From: Candidatus Bathyarchaeota archaeon
GTDB lineage: Archaea; Thermoproteota; Bathyarchaeia; Bathyarchaeales; Bathycorpusculaceae
Direction: 5' to 3'
NCBI GenBank assembly: GCA_963811105.1
Contig: CAWEPZ010000009.1
Location: forward strand, 192,001-256,000
DNA: 64,000 nucleotides
Under the pieces are notes generated by a model, which had not been told where the DNA came from, made no database searches, and saw nothing but the letters and a program-made list of their open reading frames with translations. The position numbers and the translations under genes are program-made. The first letter of the stretch is position 1. Every line of letters starts with the position of its first letter. Positions 11,808 through 39,736 of the stretch are shown piece after piece.

Positions 11808-12577
11808 CTGACAACTTTCCTAAATTGGTACAAAGTTGCACTCATTGTTATTAGAGCGACTAACCCAATAACTCCCCAAGCAGGAAGTATCGTACCCCAA
11901 TCATAGCCAGTGATCATTAGCGCTCGGCTGGCGTCAACGGCATAACTTACTGGGTTAAACATTGACACATCCTTCACCCATGTAGGTAGGAAACTAATCG
12001 GGAACAACGCCGAACTTAGGAACAGCAACGGAAAAGTGATGACTCCTCCTATGGCGAAAACCGTTTCGGAACTTCTGGTTTTCATGCCTAGCGCTAAAGA
12101 GATTCCTGACCAAGCAAGTCCAAAAAACGCAAGCGTGAAGAATATGAGCAGAATTCCGACAACTCCAGTGGTGACGTTGGCACCTAAGGCGTATGCTAAG
12201 CCAAGAATTATTGCTGTTTGGATAACTACTCTAAAGGCATCACTGCTTAATCTGCCCAGAAGAATCGCAGGACGACTTACAGGTGTTACTAGCATTTTCT
12301 GCAGGAACCCTGAGTCGATATCCGCGACTATCGAGTTTCCGGACTGTAGGGCACTTCCAAAGGCGTTTTGCATTAGAATTCCAGCGGCTGCAAACTCCAG
12401 ATAACTTACTCCAGTCGGCAATATCCCTGGAAAACTCCCCAATCTGCCCAATAGCTGTGTAAATAATAAGAGAAACAAGAGGGGTTGGAAGAGGGAAAAG
12501 AAAAGAAGGATAGGAGTGCGAACGAGTTTTGTCATATATCTTATGAATATGTAGCGAGTGTCAGAAAGCAAAGTCAT
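11804..12577 (-). CDS. ABC-2 type exporter permease (DrrB-like)
   Basis: 6 TM, GFLQKMLVTPVSR..ILLGR, NPVSYAVDASR. Confidence 0.92.
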   Translation of the reverse strand: MTLLSDTRYIFIRYMTKLVRTPILLFFSLFQPLLFLLLFTQLLGRLGSFPGILPTGVSYLEFAAAGILMQNAFGSALQSGNSIVADIDSGFLQKMLVTPVSRPAILLGRLSSDAFRVVIQTAIILGLAYALGANVTTGVVGILLIFFTLAFFGLAWSGISLALGMKTRSSETVFAIGGVITFPLLFLSSALFPISFLPTWVKDVSMFNPVSYAVDASRALMITGYDWGTILPAWGVIGLVALITMSATLYQFRKVVS

Positions 12578-12579
12578 TC

Positions 12580-13575
12580 TTATCGCCTTCCTCCGAACAT
12601 TCTACTGGGAGCCTTAATGAGTTCTTCTGTTCTTATTCTTCTGCCCGTGTGCTTCATAAAAACGTCATCTAGCGAAGGGGAGGAGAACGTAACCGATGAA
12701 AGCCTAATGTCGCTACTGTCTAACGCCCGTACAATATCAGCGATTAGTAGACCCGCGTTCTTTGCATAGACAGTGAGACATTCTTCTGAATCTATTATTT
12801 CTGTGACGTCAGTCATGGTTCTAATGAGCTCTTTTGCCTTAACGCTGTCTTTCTTGCAGCTTTCAAGAGAAATCCTGATAGAGTCTGCCCCAATTTGGCG
12901 TTTTAGCTCAAGCGGAGAGCCACTTGCAACTATTTTTCCAACATCAATTATTGAAAGTCGTTTGCACAACTTATCGGCTTCTTCCAAATATTGGGTAGTT
13001 AAAAAAATGGTTATGCCTTCTTCTTTGTTTAGTTTTTCCAGATAACTCCAAATAGCGGAACGCGACTGAGGGTCCAAACCAGTTGTGGGTTCATCTAGAA
13101 ATAGGATTTTTGGCTTATGAATCAGAGCAGTAGCTAGATCCAGCCGTTTTTTCATGCCACCGGAGTAGTTTCTAGCTCGTTTTTCTGCCGCTTCTTCAAG
13201 ACCCACGAGACTTAGAAGTTCGTTGACTCGTTTTTTGATCTCATTTCCGTTCATCTGGTGGAAATGGCCTTGAATAGTTATGTTTTCCCTGCCTGTAAGA
13301 TCACCGTCAACGGTTGTTTCTTGGCTTTGCACTCCGATGATTTTGCGGATAAGAGCTGCTTGTTTATCAACGTCGTATCCTGCGATAGTAACGACGCCGG
13401 ATGTTTTTCTGAGAAGTGTCGTAAGAATCTTAATTGTTGTGCTTTTTCCTGCTCCGTTAGGTCCTAGAAAACCGAAGAATTCTCCTTCTTGAACACTAAA
13501 GGAAATGTCGTCTACGGCTTTTGTGCCATCGCCATAAATTTCAACAAGATTCTTTACCGTAATAATGTCTGACAT
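12580..13575 (-). CDS. ABC-2 exporter ATPase (DrrA-like)
   Basis: GPNGAGKST, YSGGMKKR, FLDEPTTGLDP, PSLDDVF; start set at MSDII. Confidence 0.93.
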   Translation of the reverse strand: MSDIITVKNLVEIYGDGTKAVDDISFSVQEGEFFGFLGPNGAGKSTTIKILTTLLRKTSGVVTIAGYDVDKQAALIRKIIGVQSQETTVDGDLTGRENITIQGHFHQMNGNEIKKRVNELLSLVGLEEAAEKRARNYSGGMKKRLDLATALIHKPKILFLDEPTTGLDPQSRSAIWSYLEKLNKEEGITIFLTTQYLEEADKLCKRLSIIDVGKIVASGSPLELKRQIGADSIRISLESCKKDSVKAKELIRTMTDVTEIIDSEECLTVYAKNAGLLIADIVRALDSSDIRLSSVTFSSPSLDDVFMKHTGRRIRTEELIKAPSRMFGGRR

Positions 13576-13731
13576 AAGTTTTACACTATATAGTTTCACG
13601 TTTGGTAAAATAACCCTATGTGACTGTCGCCCTACAGCCACACAAGCGAGCTAAAAGAAGCTAGTTATATTTGCCCTTGCTATTTGCCCAAGTAAGTTAG
13701 CAAACTGAATCCTCGATTCATAAAAAATAAC

Positions 13732-17188: not shown

Positions 17189-17751
17189 TTGGTTTGTGAA
17201 TGCTTGCATCTTTGTCTTCAGAGTAACCTGACCCTGAGCGCTAACTATATGCTCGACAAACACATATTTTCTACAAAACTGTAAGGTACATTTCTTAAAT
17301 AGCGTGTCCGAAAAGGATTATTTTCAAGTTCGCTATATGTCCTTGAATGATTTGCGGGATGCTTGTCGAATGTGTGTAGTATTACTTTTAATGCTAATCA
17401 ATTTATGCAATAATCCGAAATGCAAGAATAAAAGGGTGATGGCTCGTCTCTTTGAGACGGGACATTATTAAGGGCTACTAACTAAATTTTTTAAGAGATT
17501 GCTCGAAGAGTGAGTGAACTGAACCCTTAAACGTATGATTACTTTCTCAAAACAGCATAAAAGCTTTGGCAAAAAAACAACATGTAATAGTAAACTATGT
17601 GGAACATGACAGAGTTCTTTGACTTCTCAATCCAGCAAGTACGCGGTACAAAAATTCCGTAATATTCATTGCTTATGTTCAAAGAGATAATGAATATGTG
17701 CAAATCTTAATATTTTTCGGGCAAGCTCTATTACGTAGAAGGAAAACTAAA

Positions 17752-20247
17752 TTGAAAATCTTAAACAAGAAAAGCCTTAACATTGTGATTTCGATTTTGC
17801 TAATCGCTTCTTTTGCGGTCACACTATTTGGAAACCTAAACGTAGCCGCTCAATCTTTAGGCAAAGCTTACCCGTTTATCGAAGCAGTTCCTAACCCAGT
17901 CGGTAAAGGACAAGTAACACTGTTAAACGTCGGCGCTCTCAACTTCCTAAACGCTGAAAACGATGGTTGGAACGTGACGGTCTCAATCACAAAACCAGAT
18001 GGAACCAATGATACCATAGGATCATTCAAGACATTCTCAACCGGCACGTATGGAAAATCTTATGTCCCAGACCAAGTAGGAACATATGTCCTGAAGACAA
18101 ACTTCCTTGAACAAACATACGCGGGCGTGAAATATGCTGCAGTTTCAAGCGATCCATATGAACTAGTCGTTCAGGAACAACCAGTGCCAGCCTATCCAGA
18201 TCAGCCTCTCCCAGCAGAATATTGGTCACGCCCTATCGATTCACAGCTTCGATCCTGGTGGTCAATTGCAGGCAGTTGGTTAACTAAACCAAATAACCTC
18301 TTAGCGCCGTACAATGCAGGTCCAGAAAGTGCACATGTTCTTTGGTCACAACCATTAGGTGACATGAACGGTGGACTCGCAGGCGGCGACACTGGTGAGC
18401 ATGGACATGAAACAGGCGATGCATATGAAGGCAAATTCTCAGGTTCAGTAATTATCGATGGAGTTCTATACTACAACCGATACATTTCAGGCAACCCACA
18501 ACAAACAGTTGTCGCAATGGATTTACACACTGGAAAACAACTTTGGGAAACCAACCTATTGGGCCAAGGCTTACGTTTAAGCTTCGGGCAAACCCTTTGG
18601 TGGGATTCAAGGAACAACCGCGCAGTCTTCTCATACATATATGCTTCTAGCGGAACCAACTTGTTTGCTTTTGACGCACACACAGGAAACTTGCAATTCA
18701 ACTTCACAAACGTACCCTCAGGCACAGTGTACTACGGTGCAAACGGCGAACTCTTAAAATACACACTAACAAACCTTGGCAACACAACGAACCCCAAATA
18801 TTACCTCAATCAATGGAACTCGAGTTGGGTAGTAACCAACGGCAAGACTGGTATGTCTGAAAGCTGGGGCAGCCAAGTCTTAGGAGTTACATACAACGCA
18901 ACACTTAGAGGATATGACAGAAACGTCTCATGTACAGGAATAACTTCAGTTCTTCCAGGCAGCGCTTCAATAGCATACGTCGGCGATAAACTAATCGGCA
19001 CCCGAGTCAACCAAACCGAAGTTGACCTCTGGGGAGTAAGCATAGCACCCGATGCAAGCTTCGGACAATTACTATACAACACAGTATGGGCAGCACCATC
19101 TGAATGGCTTCTAGGCAACATAACCATCGGTGGCATAGGACAATCCGGTTGGTGTGCATGGAGTCCAACAAACCAAGTTGGCGTCTACTTCACAAAAGAG
19201 AACCGTGTACACTACGGTTTCAGTACGTCTAACGGTAGCTTCCTATGGCAAACGGCACCACAAAAATTTGAAGACGCTTGGAGTGACACAGTCACCGCGA
19301 CCTTCGGCCCAGACAGAGTCATTGCCTACAACGAGCTAATCTCTGCCACAGTCGGCGGAACAGTATATGCATATAACATTGCTGATGGCAAACTATCTTG
19401 GACATACAACGCAACAGATCCTTTCCACGAATCATACATCGGCAACGATTGGTGGACAGTACCACTTTTCGTCACAGACGGCAAAATCTACATTGGCAGC
19501 ATGGAACACTCAGCTTTAGACCCCAAGCCAAGAGGCGCTCCGTTCTTCTGTCTTAACGTCACAACAGGCGATTTGCTCTGGAGAGTAAACGGTATGTTCC
19601 GCCAAACAAGATGGGGAGGAAGAGCAATCATCGGTGACAGCATCATCGCAACCCTAGACACATATGACCAGCAAGTCTACGCAGTAGGTAAAGGTCCAAG
19701 CTCAACGACAGTCTCGGCACCTGATATCGCTGCACCATTCGGAAACGCAGTCGTAATTAAGGGCACCGTAATGGATGTTTCACCAGGAACTAGCAGCGAT
19801 GCAATGAAACTACGCTTCCCCAACGGTGTGGCAGCAGTGTCAGACCAGAGCCAAAGCGACTGGATGCTATACGTTTACAAGCAATTTGAACAACCTGGCA
19901 ACATCACTGGAGTACCAGTAAGCATTGACGCAACTGACCCCAACAACAACTACATCCACATTGGTGACACAACAACCGACATTAGCGGTCAATTTAGCTA
20001 TATATATACACCAACACTCTCAGGCAAATACACAGTCTACGCAACGTTCTCAGGTTCAGCAGCATACTATGGTTCATATGCAGAGGCACCCTTAGGTATA
20101 GCCCAACAAGCATCACCAACGCCAAGCCCTTCACCACTAGCAGTCAGTGTCAGTGACACCTACTTAATTCCAGGCATCATTGCAATCATTATAGCAATAA
20201 TCGTAATCGGCGTAATACTTGCACTGCTCATTAGTAGAAAACATTAA
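17752..20247 (+). CDS. PQQ-like beta-propeller repeat surface protein with signal peptide and C-terminal TM anchor
   Basis: Repeats DLHTGKQLW, NIADGKLSW, NVTTGDLLW; PLPAEYWSRPI, SAHVLW and GTVMDVSPGT motifs typical of the Bathyarchaeia family; TTG start behind AGGA. Confidence 0.88.
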   Translation: MKILNKKSLNIVISILLIASFAVTLFGNLNVAAQSLGKAYPFIEAVPNPVGKGQVTLLNVGALNFLNAENDGWNVTVSITKPDGTNDTIGSFKTFSTGTYGKSYVPDQVGTYVLKTNFLEQTYAGVKYAAVSSDPYELVVQEQPVPAYPDQPLPAEYWSRPIDSQLRSWWSIAGSWLTKPNNLLAPYNAGPESAHVLWSQPLGDMNGGLAGGDTGEHGHETGDAYEGKFSGSVIIDGVLYYNRYISGNPQQTVVAMDLHTGKQLWETNLLGQGLRLSFGQTLWWDSRNNRAVFSYIYASSGTNLFAFDAHTGNLQFNFTNVPSGTVYYGANGELLKYTLTNLGNTTNPKYYLNQWNSSWVVTNGKTGMSESWGSQVLGVTYNATLRGYDRNVSCTGITSVLPGSASIAYVGDKLIGTRVNQTEVDLWGVSIAPDASFGQLLYNTVWAAPSEWLLGNITIGGIGQSGWCAWSPTNQVGVYFTKENRVHYGFSTSNGSFLWQTAPQKFEDAWSDTVTATFGPDRVIAYNELISATVGGTVYAYNIADGKLSWTYNATDPFHESYIGNDWWTVPLFVTDGKIYIGSMEHSALDPKPRGAPFFCLNVTTGDLLWRVNGMFRQTRWGGRAIIGDSIIATLDTYDQQVYAVGKGPSSTTVSAPDIAAPFGNAVVIKGTVMDVSPGTSSDAMKLRFPNGVAAVSDQSQSDWMLYVYKQFEQPGNITGVPVSIDATDPNNNYIHIGDTTTDISGQFSYIYTPTLSGKYTVYATFSGSAAYYGSYAEAPLGIAQQASPTPSPSPLAVSVSDTYLIPGIIAIIIAIIVIGVILALLISRKH

Positions 20248-23490: not shown

Positions 23491-24497
23491 TGCTGTGTTG
23501 AATAACTAAAAGCTATCTTTGAGTTAGGTTTTGAACCATTTCTCTTCACTTAGATTAAAAGCCTAATTCAGGTTCATTTTCATAAACAGGTTGTAAATTG
23601 AAGCCTTTAGCAGCAGTTCCTTAACGATGTGTTGCCACTTCACCGCACAAATAAACTCTCCAAACGTCCGCTTTAAACAAGAAAACGCTGACTCAACCAT
23701 CCAACGATACCCATAACCCTTCTCACGCCTCCATCCATCATTGCCAAGCTGCTTCACCACAGCAAACTTACGCGGCATGCAACCCCCACCCTTAAACGAA
23801 GCGTTCTTGCGCACCCTAATCAAAGGCTCAATATCCAACTCGCTGGCCAAACGGAAGTTAACTTTAGAATCATAAGCGCCATCACCAATCACTTTCACTA
23901 CATTAGCAACGCCACTTGAACCCTTAACCAACCTGCCAAACATGCGTCCATCCCCAACGTCTTCTTTAGTTACCTCAATAGCAAGTATCTGTTTGGTCTT
24001 AGTATCAACGGCAATGTGCACTTTTATGAAGCCGCGTTGCACTCTCCACTTCTTATGAATCCATTCACCGCGATTAGACACTTTAATTCCGCTAGAGTCC
24101 ACAGCGATAGTGACATCTTTGTTTACATCAACGGAAGAGGCTAAATCGATCTTCATCTTGGCGATTCGCCACCAGATAGTTGTGTAGTCTGGCGCTTTTA
24201 GTCCGTTAACGTATTGACTCAAGCCGCGCATGAAGCCTTCCAACTGCCTGTATGGCAAAACGTATGCATGCACTACAGCTAGCAGTTTGATGAATGATTC
24301 TGGGTAGCGGTATCTGCCGCCTTCTTTGCCTTCATTCATGGTTTTGAGTTCTACTAGACCAGCCTGCAACGAAGTCTAAATCAACAAGAATCAAGCCCCG
24401 TTTCACTAACGCTTCATTGTAGCCATTCCAATCTCTCAAATAACTCATAATCAAGCGTTCTGTACACAACTAGTATTTATAGTCATTCAACACAGCA
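23491..24497 (-). mobile_element. IS5-family insertion sequence (IS903/ISH1-like), copy 1
   Basis: TIR TGCTGTGTTGAAT at both ends; 8-bp TSD AAAAATAG (23483-23490 and 24498-24505); 1007 bp. Confidence 0.95.
23563..24448 (-). CDS. IS5-family DDE transposase (1-nt insertion near 24353)
   Basis: WNGYNEALVKRG, VDSSGIK, GDGAYDS, YGYRWMVESAFS; one extra base relative to copy 2. Confidence 0.9.
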
Positions 24498-24701: not shown

Positions 24702-24942
24702 ACTTTATGGGGTTTCTGCGTATGATCCCCAATAAGAGGCACCATCATTACGCAACATAAGAATTAACCATGAAATACGAGGTAGGGCTTTAGTCAAACA
24801 ACGCTTAATCGTTACAATGAAATACACAGAAAAGAATAATCAAGAATAACAAGTCAATTTTTTTATTATTAACTCTGGAAAAAACAGTTTTCCCCACACA
24901 TAGTACACTCTATCTCAAATTTCTTCAGATTAAGTCAATGTA

Positions 24943-25107
24943 TACTTTGGCGGATTATCAAAATACATTAGCAAATGGATCAACTCCGACGAAAAAGAAA
25001 TCAATGCTGAAAACGAAGGCTGACAACTATTGAGGGAAGACAAAAAGAATAACCGTTACCTCTACAAAAAACAATTAAGTTCAGCAGCAACAATAGGACA
25101 CGATTAA
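24943..25107 (+). pseudogene. Gene 3'-end remnant A (probable tyrosine integrase tail)
   Basis: YFGGLSKYISKWINSDEKEINAENEG*QLLREDKKNNRYLYKKQLSSA; homologous to 26388-26566. Confidence 0.5.
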
Positions 25108-25170
25108 CAAAACCAAAAAACACATAAATAGCCAAAGAGTCTAAACAGCAACGTCACCAAGACGATATAC

Positions 25171-25247
25171 GCGGTAATAGTACAGCTTGGTTAGTACATA
25201 GGCTTGCCAAGTCTAGGACCCGGGTTCAAATCCCGGTTACCGCACCA
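25171..25247 (+). tRNA. tRNA-Gly(GCC) with encoded CCA
   Basis: Acceptor GCGGTAA/TTACCGC, D stem GTAC/GTAC, anticodon arm TAGGC-TTGCCAA-GTCTA, T arm CCGGG-TTCAAAT-CCCGG, ACCA. Confidence 0.95.
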
Positions 25248-25346
25248 ATCTTCCAGTTCAATTCTTCCATTTAATAGATTATCTATCTATTATCTAAACT
25301 ATGTTTATAATTCGCCATTTTTGTGCTTATAATAGGTGAAAAGTAG

Positions 25347-25513
25347 ATGTCGATAGTCAGAAAGATTAGTCCGACTGGTAACAGTTTAGCATAACGCTCC
25401 CTAAATCATGGTTAACTAATCTCGAAAAAGAAAATGGTCAGAAAATCAGAGTTAGCGATTGAATTTTTTATGTACCGCAAATAGCGCCTGTAATCTCAAG
25501 AAAGTCGGCGTAG
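25347..25513 (+). pseudogene. AbrB/MazE-like DNA-binding protein, frameshifted
   Basis: AGGTGA SD; MSIVRKISPTGNSL/ITLPKSWLTNLEKENG. Confidence 0.65.
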
Positions 25514-25778
25514 AACCTATTACTATTGCGAAGCTATGGGTTCGACTTTGTTGGTGAAAAGACGATTCTTATGGCTTAGGCGATAGCGAATGTGCATTGC
25601 GAAACGGTAGTTTCTTTATTTTTCTAAACAACGCAACTGCCGTTTGGTAGTAAGCGACTTTTCTTGTTGTCTTGCTATCAAGAAGCAAAAGTTTGACTAA
25701 TGCGAAACTGCGTTTTAGCTGCTACGGATTTCGCAACAAACCTTTTAACCGCTTCTGGAAGAACTTGCGTGGTGGTCT

Positions 25779-26309
25779 ATGATGCACGACCCCAAAAACA
25801 TTAAGCCAATGAAATGCCTAATTGATGGCCGATGTAATTGCATAGCGTTCTTTAAAAAACCAGAGTGGGTAGGTTGTAATTGGCTCAAAATCTGTAGGTA
25901 TTGCCCTAAGAAAGGCTATTCTTTGGATGCTGCAAAACAATTAGAGTGTCGCCAGCAATATGAGGAACATAAGAACTTGTATCCCTTCGATTATATGAGA
26001 AATGACATTTCTGTTGAGGATCACATAAGAGGCTTAGGGTTTGAACCAGACTTAGTTCCAGATTTAGTGCGAGAAGAAGAGGCGATTGCAACACTCGTCA
26101 AGAACCTGCATGCAATAATCGGAAGCAAATTGGGAAAAATCGACAACAAACTTCTATTCTTCATCATCGAACTAACCGATTTAATGGTTCGAATGCAGAA
26201 AAACGGATGTAAATTACCCGAAAACGTCATAGACTATTTGCTAAAAATGCCTGAATTTCTGTCAGAAATAGAAAAGTGTAAGAAAGATGGAACTAGACTG
26301 CAAGGCTAG
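25779..26309 (+). CDS. Hypothetical protein with Cys-rich N-terminus
   Basis: 176 aa intact; CLIDGRCNC...CNWLKICRYCP; TATA-like TTTTAA and GGTGG SD upstream. Confidence 0.65.
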   Translation: MMHDPKNIKPMKCLIDGRCNCIAFFKKPEWVGCNWLKICRYCPKKGYSLDAAKQLECRQQYEEHKNLYPFDYMRNDISVEDHIRGLGFEPDLVPDLVREEEAIATLVKNLHAIIGSKLGKIDNKLLFFIIELTDLMVRMQKNGCKLPENVIDYLLKMPEFLSEIEKCKKDGTRLQG

Positions 26310-26387
26310 GTCTCGGTTACCGCATTGTCATAATTCCCAATGTTATTTCAATTCAAATCTCTTTAAGCATCTTAAGACTTCTGGAAA

Positions 26388-26566
26388 TATGTTCAACTCT
26401 CTAAGATCTACTTTAGTAGCTCACCGAAATTCATTAGCAAGTGGCTTCACACTAACAAAAAGGAACTCAAAGCCGTAAACGCTGGTTGGCAACATTGTAA
26501 GAGAAGGAAAAAAATCACCGACATCGCTACAAGAAGCAAGTTAGCTCAGCAACACCAAAATATGAC
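26388..26566 (+). pseudogene. Gene 3'-end remnant B (probable tyrosine integrase tail)
   Basis: YVQLSKIYFSSSPKFISKWLHTNKKELKAVNAGWQ/VREGKK/HRHRYKKQVSSA, preceded by KHLKTS. Confidence 0.5.
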
Positions 26567-26670
26567 CTGGCCAAAAAGCAGATAAATAACAGCTGAGTCT
26601 ATCGCAAAGTCGACTCGACTTAAGGCGAGAATATGTCAAAGGTCGTAGTCCAATAGCAAACTATTGAAAA

Positions 26671-26775
26671 GCGGTAGTCTAGTTTTGGTCTAGGACATCA
26701 AAGTATTTTCCAACCGGCATACTGTTTAAGCCTTCCACGCTGACGACCCGGGTTCAAATCTCGGCGACCGCACCA
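26671..26775 (+). tRNA. tRNA-Gly(TCC) with 29-nt intron at 29/30; 5' acceptor strand lacks 3 nt (pseudo-tRNA or error)
   Basis: Removing 26701-26729 gives TCAGC-CTTCCAC-GCTGA; T arm and CGACCGCACCA end intact; BHB-like junctions; 5' end reads GCGGTAGTCTAG rather than GCGGTCGTAGTCTAG. Confidence 0.8.
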
Positions 26776-26899
26776 TATTCCTGGTTCAAACCCTCAACTT
26801 TTGGTTGTAGGTGACGAAGAAAGTTTCTATGTTCTGATACCTGAATGTGAGGCAGTAATTGCTAAATTATCCAATTTAATTTCCGGTCTTAAGAGTGAT

Positions 26900-27295
26900 G
26901 GTTTTGGGTTGCTGACCTGAAAGAACTCTCACATTTAATATCTTTTCTTTCAACTGAAATTGCCGAATCATTTCACAAAAGGATTAAAATTTTCGGGAGA
27001 TTATTGAGGATTTCAGACCTGATGAATCCTAATAAAACAAGTACAACGCACTTTGAGCGTCAAGTCTGCTATTACCAGGTTTCACTGTCAGCCTCTAAAT
27101 CGATTCGCAGTTTTCTATGGAAGAGAGGCTATGATTTCGACCAATAGAAAAAACATGACTGAAGATACTTCAGCTTTGTGGACAACCGACGCCAACCTCT
27201 TCGGCGTAGTGAGCGGATACTTTGATATGGGTTGGCGTGAATCCGAAAAAGCTAAGCAAATCAACAAGCAACTAATAACAAACTTAGATTCGTAA
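26900..27295 (+). pseudogene. TrmB-family regulator C-terminal fragment
   Basis: RFAVFYGREAMIST...ALWTTDANLFGVVSGYFDMGW; 5' boundary approximate. Confidence 0.55.
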
Positions 27296-27823
27296 ACAAC
27301 AATAGAGCATTGCAGGGCATTGGTAGGTTACGGTCTTTGTATCATTTGACCAATTCGATTTCTTGCAAGGGTCACCAAAATAAACTCGTCGAAAAAAGTG
27401 ATCGTACTTAGTTCTGCTTAGTTAATTAATCGGTTTCGGGATTCAGTTTCATTGATTTGCTAAAAACATGAATTCTAAATTCATAGTAAAATTCATAGCA
27501 CTAATAAGCAAATTAAACCAATTCCTGTGGCAAGCGACGAACCCTGTTAAAACAATTCTGTTTGCCCAACTCCTTTCTCCCCAAACAGGGTTCGTCGCTT
27601 GAGGACAATCACATGGAAAAGTTTTTAAAACTATTTCCGAAATGCAGCAAATAATAGCCTCTAAATTCAGAGCGGTAGGAGAATAGAACGTGAATTGGGA
27701 TCCGCTGTCCAAACAAAAGCAAGCATATTTGAAATTTGAGAGAGAAAGTGCAGATGTTTAAAATTAAAAGTAAGGTATCCCCGAATCTGTGTTCAGGGAT
27801 CGAAATGCATTTCTCAGATTAGA

Positions 27824-28140
27824 TGTATGTTTGCGTAGTTTTGGTACAACTGAAAAATGAATCTAAACTCTATCTACTTTTGCTACAAAAGAACATTTTG
27901 TCGATTTCCAAAATTTCCAAAGAAATGAATGTGCATCCTACCAACATTTATACGGTATATTAGAACTTGATTAAGGGTCTTGTCGAGCATTCATTTGAAA
28001 GACCTGTGCGACTTCGCCCTGTTCAATTGGATCATGCCTTGAATACCCTGATTTCTCATCGTCAAGTCGAGTCATCAACTACTATCAGGAAACTTCAGAA
28101 CATTACGTCATCAACATTCTTGGAGTTGGAACGCTATTAG
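27824..28140 (+). pseudogene. TrmB-family HTH N-terminal fragment
   Basis: ESKLYLLLLQKNILSISKISKEMNVHPTNIY...KGLVE...RPVRLRPV with stop and frameshift. Confidence 0.6.
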
Positions 28141-28536
28141 CTCTGGCGAAAGCGTAAGAAAAGCAAGAACGATAGGCGACTAAGTGATAGACGAAGAGTT
28201 GACGTCAAGCACACTTCGTTTCTAATTCCAAGTTTTTACACACTCTACTTAAGGCTTGAGTTCAAATATTTCTCTTAGGTTTCCAGCTTGCATTTTTTTC
28301 TGGCCACGAAAGCTAAAAAAATAATAACAGTAAAGTTCAAAAAACAAGTGGTGCCTGGAATGGAACCTGAATACTCCCTCCAATGAAGCATTATCAGCAT
28401 ATCTCCTTTTTTCGAAAAATTTGTGTTTATCAAGTATTATCCAGTGATTTTGGGTTAAAATTAACTATGTGTAATTTTGCTTGCATCGTTTTTGAAAGAA
28501 AGATGAGTTCTTAAATTCCCAATGAGCAAAAATTCT

Positions 28537-29015
28537 TTACGTCAAAGTTAGCCGCGAACTTGTATCTATTAACTCGAGGATGATTCCCAGAAGCTGCTTA
28601 GTGTCCATGTAGTAGAAAATATTGTCACCGACCCTGCCATTCATGAGCACATCGACACCCATTTCCTTCAGCGAGGCGAGCGCCACTTTAGGGTCCTTAA
28701 CACTCCACTGGACATGATGAAGACCCTCGCCTCTCTCCTCAAGAAACTCCTTCCAAATGCTGGGGCCATCAAGTGGCTGTATCAGTTCCAGCTGAATGTT
28801 ACCGCTCTGGGCAATTGCGGCCAATATTGAAGCCTCAACAGGTTTCCCACGTAGGCTCACATCCGTGAGGATCGGCGGCTCCATTCTGACAATCTGCCAA
28901 GGACCGATACCCAACGTAGCCCAATAGTCATCCACTGCTTTCTGCAGATCTTGACAACGATTCCGCTATGAATTATCTCGCCTATCTTTATTTTTGGTAC
29001 GACCAAATTACTCAC
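28537..29015 (-). CDS. VOC-family protein (methylmalonyl-CoA epimerase-like), 1-nt deletion near 28950
   Basis: IIHSGIVV(K)/DLQKAVDDYWATLGIGPW, QLELIQP, RGEGLHHV, YMDT...ILEL. Confidence 0.8.
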
Positions 29016-29268
29016 AGTTTTTGTCCTCTAGTTTCAAACTAAACAATTGACTTATTAACCGTTTGTTGTTGCGTGGCAATCACCAAGAACACCCAGTTAC
29101 ATAGCTCAGAAGCGACGTTGTAAAGCTTGAGCGGTGCCCTGGTTAACAGAGTTAGTAACCTCTATATGTGAAAGTTTAGTATATTTCCTGAAAAGGACGA
29201 ATCCTCTTTAAACGTAAACTATTTATTTTTCGCGAATTTAATCAAGAAATAACAAGAGTGCTTTTGTT

Positions 29269-30027
29269 ATGGATATTAAGTTGAAAGATGATTTTATAGT
29301 TGCGTGGAAGCGTTTTTTTGGCGAAGCTGAACTTCCAATCACTTTTTACTACACAAACGAAGAAGGCCACGCAGAACTTGTTAAACCTAGTTCTGGTCAA
29401 AGATGCGTCTTTGCTGATCTTTCCAATGTCAGAAATGGCAAACCAATATGTTTTGATGCTCAGTCAATTGGTTGTTTTGGCGGACGAAAATTCTTAGGTT
29501 TCAGCGAGAAAGTCATACCTAACTTTGAATACTTCCTATCCTGTGGAATTCCAGACAAGCTGGAAGGTGAACGCTACAAAAAAACTCCAGAAATTGCCAC
29601 TGAATTTCTCAAACACGTGCCAAAATTCAAAGCACCGGCAAAGTTCATAGTCTTCAAGAAGTGGGATCAACTGGATGAGTCAGATAAACCAGAAGTCATA
29701 ATTTTCTTTGCCCAACCTGATGTTCTCTCAGGTCTTTTCACGCTAGCTAATTTTGACGAAACAGATCCTAACAGTGTAATAACTCCTTTTGCCCCCGGAT
29801 GCTCATCTATTGTGCAGTACCCTTTATTTGAGAAAGATACGGCCAGACCAAGAGCGGTCACAGGATTATTTGATGTTTCAGCACGCCCATTTGTTCCCGA
29901 GAATACGCTAACTTTTTCGGTACCTATGCACAAGTTCGAGCAAATGGTTCAAAATATGGACCAAAGCTTCTTAATAACAAAGTCATGGAAGGCGGTTCAG
30001 AAAAGGATTCAAGCCACAAAAAAGTAA
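29269..30027 (+). CDS. DUF169-family protein
   Basis: ELPITFYY, IGCFGG, YFLSCGIP..EGERYKKTPE, QPDVLSGLFTLANF, FDVSARP. Confidence 0.85.
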   Translation: MDIKLKDDFIVAWKRFFGEAELPITFYYTNEEGHAELVKPSSGQRCVFADLSNVRNGKPICFDAQSIGCFGGRKFLGFSEKVIPNFEYFLSCGIPDKLEGERYKKTPEIATEFLKHVPKFKAPAKFIVFKKWDQLDESDKPEVIIFFAQPDVLSGLFTLANFDETDPNSVITPFAPGCSSIVQYPLFEKDTARPRAVTGLFDVSARPFVPENTLTFSVPMHKFEQMVQNMDQSFLITKSWKAVQKRIQATKK

Positions 30028-30378
30028 ATTGTCATGCTCAATTTTCTTTTCCAAAATAGTTTAGTGCTGGACCATAACGCCATGCCGCAAACCCGATTAT
30101 AATCAAAAACAAGAATACCCAGATATTACCTGATTAACGAAAGAAGATAAACGGCATTAGGTTTATTTTGGACTCGTTGTATCCCCAATCTAAATTCTAA
30201 AATCTCACGATGCATCATTCAATGATAGGTCTAAATAAAATCTTGTAAATAATTTCGGTTTCTTAATTCGTTGTCCCCTCTAGAAGGGGGCAAACAAACG
30301 AACAAAAAAAATTATTTGCAAGTTCTTACAAAGACATAAGCCCATAGACTGAAGTATCTTAAGATTGAGGAATTTAGA

Positions 30379-30825
30379 ATGAGGACTCAGCAAGTTCAAA
30401 GTAAGCCTACCGCAGCTTGTATTCTTTCATTAACTGGAGGAATATTTGGCATAATTATGTCCTTGATAATAATCGGGTATGCGACATCACATTTAGTTCA
30501 AGAAGGTTCGGTAAGTATCTTTAGGATTTTTTCAATAACTTCAGGCATAGGAATCTGGTTCTTGATATCCGCAATGGTGGTGCTTTTTTCAGCAGTCAAG
30601 CTGAACGCCAACCCAATAGAGCACACGAAGTGGGGCATAATAATACTTGTCTTCCCAACCATTGGCTGGGTCCCACTACTTTTCATAAGCATAGTCTTGG
30701 GGTTTTGGTATAACCCGATAATAATATTCTCAATCGCTTTCCTGAGCACATTTCTTGTTTTTATAGGCGGAATCTCGACATTATTGTATATCCCAAAGTT
30801 CAAACCCACCCTTAAGCCGTCTTAA
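30379..30825 (+). CDS. Hypothetical 4-TM membrane protein
   Basis: GAGGA SD; PTAACILSLTGG...HTKWGIIILV. Confidence 0.7.
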   Translation: MRTQQVQSKPTAACILSLTGGIFGIIMSLIIIGYATSHLVQEGSVSIFRIFSITSGIGIWFLISAMVVLFSAVKLNANPIEHTKWGIIILVFPTIGWVPLLFISIVLGFWYNPIIIFSIAFLSTFLVFIGGISTLLYIPKFKPTLKPS

Positions 30826-31272
30826 TTGTTTAATTCCCTCTTTCTCCGAAAACAACTGAAATAAATTTAGAAGCATAAAATTTGTTTTCACAAATTTAGA
30901 AGATAAACGACTTAATCAAAGAAGAGGACCACCAAAATAACGAAAGTTTATACTCCTCGCTCAAAAACACACCAGCCAACTCCAAAGAAGTTTTAGCAAA
31001 ATAAGATAATAAAAAGACTCCATATGTGGTTAAGGGAAATACCAGTGAGTAGCGTGCAAAAGTCTATGATATCAACATGCTCATCGAAGAATACCGATGG
31101 GCACGACAGCACTTTCTCATCGGTTATTCTCGTTTAATTGATTAATTTTCATTCAGGATTCAAAATAGTCGCAGAGGTACTGTCCTTATTCACATCCAAA
31201 CCAAAAACAACGGCGCTCATAGTATGGCGTGAGCGCTGCCCTTAACACTATCCATATCATCAGTCTGGTTCA

Positions 31273-31297
31273 GGTTCAAATCTCGGCGACCGCACCA
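31273..31297 (+). repeat. tRNA-Gly 3'-end fragment (attR-like)
   Basis: Exact copy of 26751-26775, including the CTCGG variant. Confidence 0.9.
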
Positions 31298-38956: not shown

Positions 38957-39736
38957 TCATGGTTGGAGTTTTTCTACGTAGCGTGCGCTGAACCCAAACC
39001 CAGACGTACGCGAACGCGCGTAAGGTGTTGGTTCGGGTTCTTCGGGTATTGGCATTGGTTCGGGTTCTTCGGGTTCTGGTTCAGGTTCTGGATTTGGCTC
39101 AGGTTCGGGTTCTTCGGGTTCTGGTTCAGGTTCTGGATTTGGCTCAGGTTCGGGTTCTTCGGGTTCTGGTTCAGGTTCTGGATTTGGCTCAGGTTCGGGT
39201 TCTTCGGGTTCTGGTTCAGGTTCTGGATTTGGCTCAGGTTCGGGTTCTTCGGGTTCTGGTTCAGGTTCTGGATTTGGCTCAGGTTCGGGTTCTTCGGGTT
39301 CTGGTTCAGGTTCTGGATTTGGCTCAGGTTCGGGTTCTTCGGGTTCTGGTTCAGGTTCTGGATTTGGCTCAGGTTCGGGTTCTTCGGGTTCTGGTTCAGG
39401 TTCTGGATTTGGCTCAGGTTCTGGATTTGGCTCAGATATTATTATCAAATTTGCCACATTTTTTGTCTCTGTCAACTTGCGCGTGGGCATACTTATTGAC
39501 GCGCTTAATTCGTCAGTTGTTATTTCGCTTCCAGTTGGTCTGAATCTTTTCATGAACCTATTAATTATCTTTGAAACTCTGTCTGCTTCTTCTTTAACGT
39601 CAACTTTAATGAAGATTTTATTATTTGGATAACCAAGTTGATAACCAGCATTATACCCTCTTTTCTGAAGAAACCTTACGATAACCTGTGAAAGCCGCTC
39701 ATTCTCTGGTTTAAACACTTCATAATCCATCGGCAT
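38957..39736 (-). CDS. Hypothetical protein with long Glu-Pro repeat tract
   Basis: About 100-aa non-repetitive N-domain, then ([15 protein letters not shown])x8; SD- and TATA-like sequences upstream. Confidence 0.75.
39057..39434. repeat. Perfect tandem repeat, 45 bp x 8 plus partial unit
   Basis: Unit GGTTCGGGTTCTTCGGGTTCTGGTTCAGGTTCTGGATTTGGCTCA. Confidence 0.97.

Follow-up and report, generated by a model that had tools for sequence, protein, structure and literature searches.

Recombination with the 5′ part of transfer RNA (tRNA) genes is described as rare (PMC6563490). The pTN3-like integrases of Thermococcales use the 5′ half of a tRNA gene as attB, and the full tRNA is rebuilt apart from its original promoter (PMC5495485; PMC8371274); the rebuilt gene is said to be expressed from the integrase promoter (review PMC8371274). 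These integrases are ‘suicidal’: their site of 41–43 bp is internal to the integrase gene, so that integration splits the gene, and they are assigned to PF16795 (PMC8371274). In Caldiarchaeum subterraneum, a 5′ fragment (nucleotides (nt) 1–27) of tRNA-Thr(GGU), together with its upstream DNA, is found 1.8 kb ahead of the tRNA, a recombinase gene lying between the two; the rebuilt tRNA contains an extra intron at position 24/25, adjoining the border of the shared segment (PMC3293823). CalSub-E1, a separate Caldiarchaeum case, involves the 5′-distal region of a tRNA-Ser gene (PMC6563490). The locus described here lies in a 64,000-nt stretch of the genome of a Candidatus Bathyarchaeota archaeon (the window, G000:C9:192001–256000, with G000 denoting the genome and C9 the contig) and contains two tRNA-Gly genes, each preceded by the decayed end of a tyrosine integrase gene.

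The two modules are likely to be the dead right-hand ends of integrative elements from one clade of unsplit tyrosine integrases, probably of Bathyarchaeia, that attach at the first 20–28 nt of tRNA genes. In the proposed mechanism, the attachment site just downstream of the integrase stop codon would correspond to these first 20–28 nt, comprising the 5′ acceptor strand and the D-arm. Integration would move the native promoter and a short 5′ piece to the far end of the element, and the tRNA would be rebuilt behind the integrase and a leader made up of a TATA-like box, a degenerate repeat of the tRNA’s own start and a short spacer (GCATGGAAAA type). At the second tRNA-Gly, the integrase remnant (relic B) and its leader would represent such a junction, most of the element having been deleted later. 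The remnant before the first tRNA-Gly (relic A) would be an older relic with orthologues in relatives, next to which a loss of approximately 65 nt, in G000 alone, would have removed the tRNA-GCC promoter and placed a TATA-like box at −44. A sequence-only reading of the window had proposed that stacked integrations of an element family supplied the promoter and 5′ side of the tRNA-Gly genes; it is partly supported, its core being right and several of its local details wrong, and the window contains relics only.

Integrase tails upstream of two tRNA-Gly genes

The DNA upstream of the tRNA-Gly(GCC) gene (tRNA A) is homologous to that upstream of the second tRNA-Gly gene (tRNA B). Local alignment of 24900–25170 with 26370–26671 (window coordinates) gave a score of 61, compared with 11.8 ± 1.6 (maximum 18) for 300 shuffles and a mean of 10.9 for 1,000 random genomic windows, among which a single high value of 246 is probably due to self-overlap of the query. 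The homologous stretches, 24943–25143 and 26406–26601, span approximately 200 nt each and include the gene tails to which the sequence-only reading had pointed, together with the promoter-like blocks in the form quoted there. The blocks that follow the stop codons, CCAAAAAACACATAAATAGCCAAAGAGTCTA and CCAAAAAGCAGATAAATAACAGCTGAGTCTA (Table 1), are identical at 24 of 31 positions. A local aligner was needed to detect this relationship, as BLAST of either module against its own genome did not pair the two. The 3′ trailers, ATCTTCCAGTTCAATTC and TATTCCTGGTTCAAACC, are also alike (the first had been slightly misquoted), and the additional tRNA 5′ fragment GGTCGTAGTCC is present at the position given for it. 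Of the material reported between the tRNAs, the Cys-rich open reading frame (ORF; 25779–26309) exists, without a Pfam match, but the ‘AbrB-like’ nature of the remnant is not confirmed, this 26-residue in-frame piece having no Pfam match either.

The tails were identified by comparison with P0001, a full-length 479-residue integrase paralogue on contig C6 of G000. P0001 is an open frame that ends in the same module, upstream of tRNA-Gly(CCC) at C6:38764. PF00589 (Phage_integrase) matches its residues 271–420 at 33.3 bits (cut-off 27.1, E = 5.1e-8), and a zinc-ribbon-like stretch at its N terminus falls below threshold. In tblastn, relic A corresponds to residues 423–479 of P0001 (40% identity, E = 1.4e-6) and relic B to residues 415–451 (46% identity, E = 3.5e-4), placing both relics at the end of an enzyme that passes the PF00589 cut-off; the tails are thus tyrosine-recombinase C termini, as had been supposed. 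BLASTP aligns relic A with 11 of 26 residues identical (E = 1e-6). Relic B extends back to KHLKTSGN/YVQLSKIYF, the counterpart of LLGHKSTHYLWLYVQLSHIYF in P0001, and the H..KTS..YVQL pattern on which the earlier guess had been based matches LLGHKSTHYLWLYVQL of P0001. The catalytic-type stretches ARPVEA, YTFRYWRAT and LLGHKSTHYLWLY were seen in P0001 by eye only; relic B keeps KH and, beyond a frameshift, YVQL.

The window has no intact integrase gene: relic A consists of the last ~60 codons with an in-frame TGA, and relic B is interrupted by frameshifts and stops. Metagenome contigs of three runs, representing related strains, have G at 25023, giving TGG in place of the TGA of relic A. In a protein atlas the integrase family is found mostly in Candidatus Bathyarchaeota, and the clade of unsplit integrases probably belongs to Bathyarchaeia. 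A scan of genome contigs with P0001 returned no relative. An isolated N-terminal fragment of the C6 integrase (residues 1–44, 86% identical) is located at G000:C11:335771–335902.

Family placement and direct repeats of tRNA 5′ segments

Further integrase copies or fragments in G000 adjoin tRNA-Asp, tRNA-Ile, tRNA-Pro, tRNA-His, tRNA-Leu and tRNA-Thr. The family was surveyed at 30 loci from 41 genomes (relatives are denoted G001, G002 and so on), with tRNAs called by ARAGORN. A tRNA was called at 19 of the 30 loci and is located within 127 nt of the integrase stop codon at 18 of them; at the remaining locus the tRNA lies upstream of the integrase. Homologues are routinely found beside tRNA genes. 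In eight of the 18 the integrase reads towards the tRNA 5′ end (co-directional), and in ten it converges on the tRNA 3′ end. A tree of 20 sequences, which are few and related and reveal a pattern only, groups six co-directional integrases, including P0001, in one clade (support 100/99), with a sister group composed of convergent integrases and two co-directional ones. Of the 11 loci where no tRNA was called, one has its integrase facing, ~50 nt away, the 3′ end of a gene for RNase P RNA (L047, G015:C1, 1156–1449), and at another the integrase is 277 nt from the 3′ end of a 23S ribosomal RNA gene (L025, G003:C1, 1–1224); the targets of the family may not be limited to tRNAs.

The integrase-linked Gly, Pro, His, Arg and Asp tRNAs share an upstream layout: a TATA-like box near −44 (recognised by eye, as were all such boxes), then, at about −33 to −17, a degenerate repeat of the start of the cognate tRNA, and finally a spacer of the type given above, abutting +1. 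These leader features are absent from the ordinary tRNAs of G000, in which CTTTAAAT-like boxes are present. The extra 5′ fragment before tRNA B, previously taken for a scar of local stacking, is instead a general part of the leader. As G075, G023 and G021 have the fragment before an intact tRNA, the copy at 26641 is neither an exon nor a local scar; at a guess, the degenerate start is a putative accessory integrase-binding site.

Direct repeats of the tRNA 5′ segment were found at integrase-linked loci in relatives. In G016, one strand carries two copies of the first 20 nt of tRNA-Arg(TCG), GGGCTCGTAGCCTAGCACGG, at a spacing of 31,780 nt. The distal copy stands behind a promoter homologous to the native one (G000 C10:10972–11025, 83% over 54 nt; also in G011) and runs into element DNA, namely a hairpin with a T-run followed by a winged-helix-like gene for which all Pfam matches are below cut-off. 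The proximal copy starts the complete tRNA and stands behind the leader and the integrase, an intact 499-residue ORF in its integrated state. G011 has the same paired 5′ copies at tRNA-Arg, on two contigs, and G001 has paired copies at tRNA-Pro, where the distal one stands behind an older leader and thus forms a stack. Three of the four relatives tested were therefore positive. After the 20–28-nt tRNA segment, element left ends have a short palindrome (GGTGATGTCACC, GGCGATATCGCC and others) and then a T-run (L124, L121, L119, L130, L061; G000 C3:42511 and C11:1495613), which might, speculatively, act as a putative terminator for transcripts from the displaced native promoter.

In G000 itself, second 5′ copies were found for two of the seven tRNAs tested, Asp and Gly-CCC. 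A first search for displaced copies, with 22 nt and up to five mismatches, returned none, the probe being too long for a 20-nt site; probes of 12–16 nt then located the Asp copy. The native tRNA-Asp promoter and ~22 nt of the gene are at C3:42511, and the integrase-linked complete tRNA is at C14:14323, the latter being the only complete tRNA-Asp found in G000. Among the relatives’ tRNA-Asp loci that include the 5′ part, all 24 apart from G023:C9 keep the native promoter block, which both integrase-linked copies (G000:C14 and G023:C9) lack. When this native promoter was sought upstream of the integrase at G023:C9, only a chance 12-mer inside coding DNA was obtained. Pieces of the G000 Asp locus are spread over C3, C14 and C9: outside the window, G000:C9:356500–357200 holds the conserved downstream flank of the native tRNA-Asp locus, with an integrase tail (...QVNFYRKPKRFGVSQ*) ending where the tRNA is expected. 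For Gly-CCC, a native-type promoter with 20 nt of the gene is at C11:1495613, and the complete gene is the one behind P0001; this C6 tRNA, a hybrid, is identical to its orthologue in G020 except at positions 5 and 7, both of which fall within the exchanged segment. The paired copies in relatives and at these two G000 loci bear out the proposal that the family recombines with the tRNA 5′ end, leaving integrase and leader before a rebuilt tRNA.

The glycine tRNA locus in relatives and alternative explanations

Stacked copies are kept at this locus in relatives, at the orthologue of tRNA B (tRNA 2). In G075, one strand carries, in order, the conserved flank shared with the window, an older integrase tail (EGVSVFRKLK*) with leader, a 25-nt copy of the tRNA 2 start, an element left end, a short relic-A-like block, the promoter and tRNA-GCC ‘type 1’, relic B, its leader, and intact tRNA 2 (GCC). 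The 25-nt copies are 973 nt apart and enclose tRNA-GCC, relic B and the leader, with the distal copy behind the older integrase tail. In G020, a 28-nt copy (one mismatch) lies 3.65 kb upstream of tRNA 2, behind another integrase tail. Because G075 and G020 keep these 5′ copies behind integrase tails, stacked 5′ integrations at tRNA 2 are documented in relatives. The stacking claimed for the window is seen at its counterpart in these two relatives and at the tRNA-Pro locus of G001; the window itself lacks such copies.

Relic A has a different relation to its tRNA. A conserved promoter block (TAGTTTATTAGG...TTTAGATTGTTGCGTT) precedes the type 1 tRNA-GCC in 19 of 19 orthologues from relatives and is found neither in the window nor elsewhere in the G000 assembly. 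In the window ~65 nt are missing, so that CATAAATAG sits at the position of the native box; relic A touches the tRNA in G000 only. In G075, G020 and G023 the relic is upstream of the tRNA’s own promoter, an arrangement that a 5′ integration into this tRNA does not explain. ARAGORN confirms tRNA-Gly(GCC) at 25171–25247, and no other GCC tRNA was found in the G000 assembly; tRNA A must therefore be expressed, presumably from relic DNA. We infer the use of these boxes as promoters, the order of the deletions and the same origin of the window’s relics.

Several observations weigh against 5′-end integration as the origin of the modules. Even with up to three mismatches allowed, neither tRNA-Gly has a displaced 5′ copy in the window, and a search of the window for the left-end motif gave 0 matches; therefore the mechanism is transferred from relatives, and no crossover is mappable here. 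Older layers of the stack may have been lost from the window, and the insertion sequence (IS) transposase at 23563–24469 may have removed them. The position of the relic-A block upstream of the genus-wide tRNA-GCC promoter, in the three relatives named, is not predicted by simple 5′ integration. No second 5′ copy was found for tRNA-Ala in G010 or for the other five of the seven tRNAs tested in G000, and two co-directional integrases fall outside the 100/99 clade. The TATA-like boxes are putative promoters. The genomes are mostly draft assemblies, and that of G023 is 86% complete and may mix strains.

Two further points of this kind favour an alternative in which an integrase of the ‘suicidal’ SSV/pTN3 type, with its attachment site inside the gene, was split by integration into the 3′ end of tRNA-Gly(GCC) and left relic B as its Int(C) half, with its place before the next tRNA-Gly reflecting tandem tRNA genes only: 26313–26326 copies the tRNA-GCC 3′ end and is followed by integrase codons in frame, and the relic starts directly after tRNA-GCC in G075, G016, G020, G010 and G055. 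In addition, P0001 has GCGACCG at its WRAT codons, as in the 3′ acceptor strand of tRNA-Gly, and the trailers of tRNA A, tRNA B, tRNA-CCC (C6) and tRNA-Asp (C14) share a TTCCAGTTCAA-like motif. However, no significant tRNA-like stretch was detected inside the gene at nine co-directional loci (seven full-length; best local scores 7–11), the G016 integrase is intact while integrated, and PF16795 (Phage_integr_3) is not among the Pfam matches of P0001 at E ≤ 1. Moreover, the G075 relic lies inside the segment bounded by 5′ copies of tRNA 2, and all relics after tRNA-GCC are orthologous and represent one event, which could be explained, judging by the short similarity between the acceptor strand and GCGACCG-type codons, by a deletion between these sequences. 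We consider a split integrase unlikely and retain 5′-end integration by an unsplit enzyme.

Neither ARAGORN nor Rfam (E ≤ 1) detects tRNA B, so that only one of the two tRNA-Gly genes reported earlier is called. It departs from the intact 78-nt G075 orthologue in four ways: 3 nt are deleted from the 5′ acceptor strand, the D-loop has an additional T, 29 nt are inserted at position 29/30, and G34T turns the anticodon from GCC to TCC. The insert was examined by an unconstrained fold and by its removal in a script, after which ARAGORN (default threshold) calls tRNA-Gly(TCC) for two of the three boundaries tried. Neither the genome nor a set of 157 stored loci yielded a convincing second copy of the insert. 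tRNA B either contains an intron or is a redundant copy in decay; an intact tRNA-Gly(TCC) is present elsewhere in G000 (C2:90495). The ‘type 2’ tRNA-Gly body (L079, L111, L068, L065 and window 26671–26775) has GCC in G002, G075 and G021, and TCC in G023 and the window. G002 gave no other tRNA-Gly(GCC)-like match, and there the gene has a promoter-like box of its own. ARAGORN with intron search calls only 43 tRNA genes in the whole of G000, with no tRNA-Tyr, for example, and many of its tRNAs may carry non-canonical introns missed by the program.

The idea that the integrase-borne segment swaps isoacceptors or moves introns is not supported, as the exchanged nucleotides (1–20/28) exclude both the anticodon and position 29/30. 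The insert is situated only 1–2 bases past the longest segment exchanged at tRNA 2 (28 nt, G020), and tRNA-GCC type 1 in G075 lies inside the segment bounded by 5′ copies. A speculative extension, which we regard as rather improbable, is that the insert is the footprint of a later family element, with the left-end hairpin kept and the rest deleted; 5′ elements would then produce intron-like disruptions at the edge of the attachment site and might import whole extra tRNA genes, freeing residents to change anticodon. If this were true, the insert would provide a second, independent case for the model of Sugahara 2012 (PMC3293823), in which mobile elements give rise to tRNA introns and fragments.

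tRNA B might alternatively be a multi-intron gene with GCG (26625–26627) and GTCGTAGTC (26643–26651) as its true 5′ exons. Its 5′ end at 26671 is 3 nt short, and GCG joined to GTCG would pair perfectly with CGACCGC of the 3′ acceptor strand. In G075, G023 and G021, however, this leader, including a fragment of the same kind, precedes an intact, intron-less tRNA, and complete tRNAs of the Pro, His, Arg and Asp types also have the fragment in front of them, making this reading very unlikely. Plain segmental duplication of a housekeeping gene tail with its tRNA-Gly, without any mobile element, would account for two similar units 1.5 kb apart on one strand but is refuted, and is hardly credible, given that the full-length homologues are integrases beside many different tRNAs, that the two tRNA bodies differ, and that A and B are less alike than B and its orthologues in other species (79–81% identical) and were not paired by BLAST.

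The features of the locus are collected in Table 1.

Table 1 Features of the tRNA-Gly locus in window coordinates.
Feature	Position	Strand	Evidence or remark
Left edge of variable region	13655..13660	.	Homology to the G075 flank ends here; that flank stops ~130 nt before the displaced tRNA-Gly 5′ copy of G075
IS transposase, DDE_Tnp_1	23563..24469	-	PF01609, 89 bits; upstream of relic A
Relic A, decayed integrase C terminus, ending ...IGHD + TAA, in-frame TGA at 25021-25023	24915..25107	+	tblastn/BLASTP to P0001
Conserved block after integrase stop, with TATA-like CATAAATAG ~44 nt before the tRNA	25113..25143	+	Putative substitute promoter of tRNA A
tRNA-Gly(GCC) ‘type 1’ (tRNA A)	25171..25247	+	ARAGORN; Rfam 67 bits
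Conventional 3′-end insertion of 1,079 nt, bounded by TCCCGGTTACCGCA (25231-25244) and TCTCGGTTACCGCA (26313-26326), carrying the Cys-rich ORF	25248..26326	+	
Relic B, decayed integrase C terminus (KHLKTSGN / frameshift / YVQLSKIYF...)	26327..26565	+	Orthologous relics in G075, G016, G010, G020, G055
Leader of rebuilt tRNA: post-stop block (26571-26601), degenerate tRNA start GGTCGTAGTCC (26641-26651), spacer ...CTATTGAAAA to 26670	26571..26670	+	
tRNA-Gly ‘type 2’ (tRNA B), anticodon TCC, 3-nt acceptor deletion, 29-nt insert at ~26700-26728	26671..26775	+	
Conventional 3′-end insertion of 4.5 kb between perfect 25-nt repeats (26751-26775, 31273-31297)	26776..31297	+	Cargo: Glyoxalase_4, DUF169, membrane protein

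The conserved flank of G075 matches C9:204284–205655 (window 12284–13655) with 73% identity over 1380 nt and is followed in the window by ~11 kb of other DNA, with the IS directly upstream of relic A. The 4.5-kb insertion contains no integrase. A metagenome contig of run X4 joins 25245 to 26343 through 15 other letters, that is, without the 1,079-nt insert; another joint in this run, from 25091 to 26559 at depth 3, may represent a relative with a single module or a chimaera and was not used. A 20-nt match at 17950–17969 (family D4), inside an 849-residue surface protein, was taken as chance after its context had been read. A tandem array of 45-nt units (family D1), with copies 97% alike in the middle, is located at 38996–39490, and large secreted PQQ-like β-propeller proteins with Ig-like ends are encoded at window 17698–20247 and at L019 3072–5561 and 9484–12207, near integrase/tRNA loci on C9 and C6.

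Comparison with described systems

The usual view is that a tRNA gene retains its own promoter after mobile DNA has landed in it; this integrase clade appears to do the opposite, and often, in this archaeal genus. In G000, the only tRNA-Asp and the only tRNA-Gly(GCC) found are both without the promoter of their relatives and stand behind DNA derived from mobile elements, in which case translation would rely on relics of mobile DNA. The locus is also relevant to the origin of non-canonical tRNA introns and tRNA fragments. The sister clade converges on tRNA 3′ ends, with 3′ repeats of 17–47 nt, and this opposite orientation makes the two clades a good system for integrase target switching.

The reversal of the usual 3′-replacement geometry, proposed in the sequence-only reading, is not new in kind (PMC8371274, PMC6563490, PMC3293823). 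In the open-access literature searched, including a paper on Bathyarchaeia viruses, no account was found of this unsplit 5′-end clade or of its leader.

There is a likeness in mechanism to the pTN3-like integrases, which also target the 5′ part of a tRNA gene and separate the rebuilt tRNA from its native promoter; in contrast to these, as they are described in the sources cited at the outset, the integrase here remains whole (G016), the 20–28-nt site is downstream of its stop codon, and P0001 matches PF00589 only. The Caldiarchaeum tRNA-Thr case is similar in its displaced 5′ fragment with a recombinase in between, and the insert of tRNA B at 29/30 parallels the intron at 24/25. That case belongs to another lineage, whereas here many tRNA species are targeted and the leader has a degenerate second tRNA start; the two are likened by arrangement only. 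The classical integrases of the pNOB8 type (review PMC8371274) share with the present family an unsplit integrase adjoining the attachment site, but they act at tRNA 3′ ends, and the window’s relics are members of the clade oriented towards the 5′ end of the tRNA.

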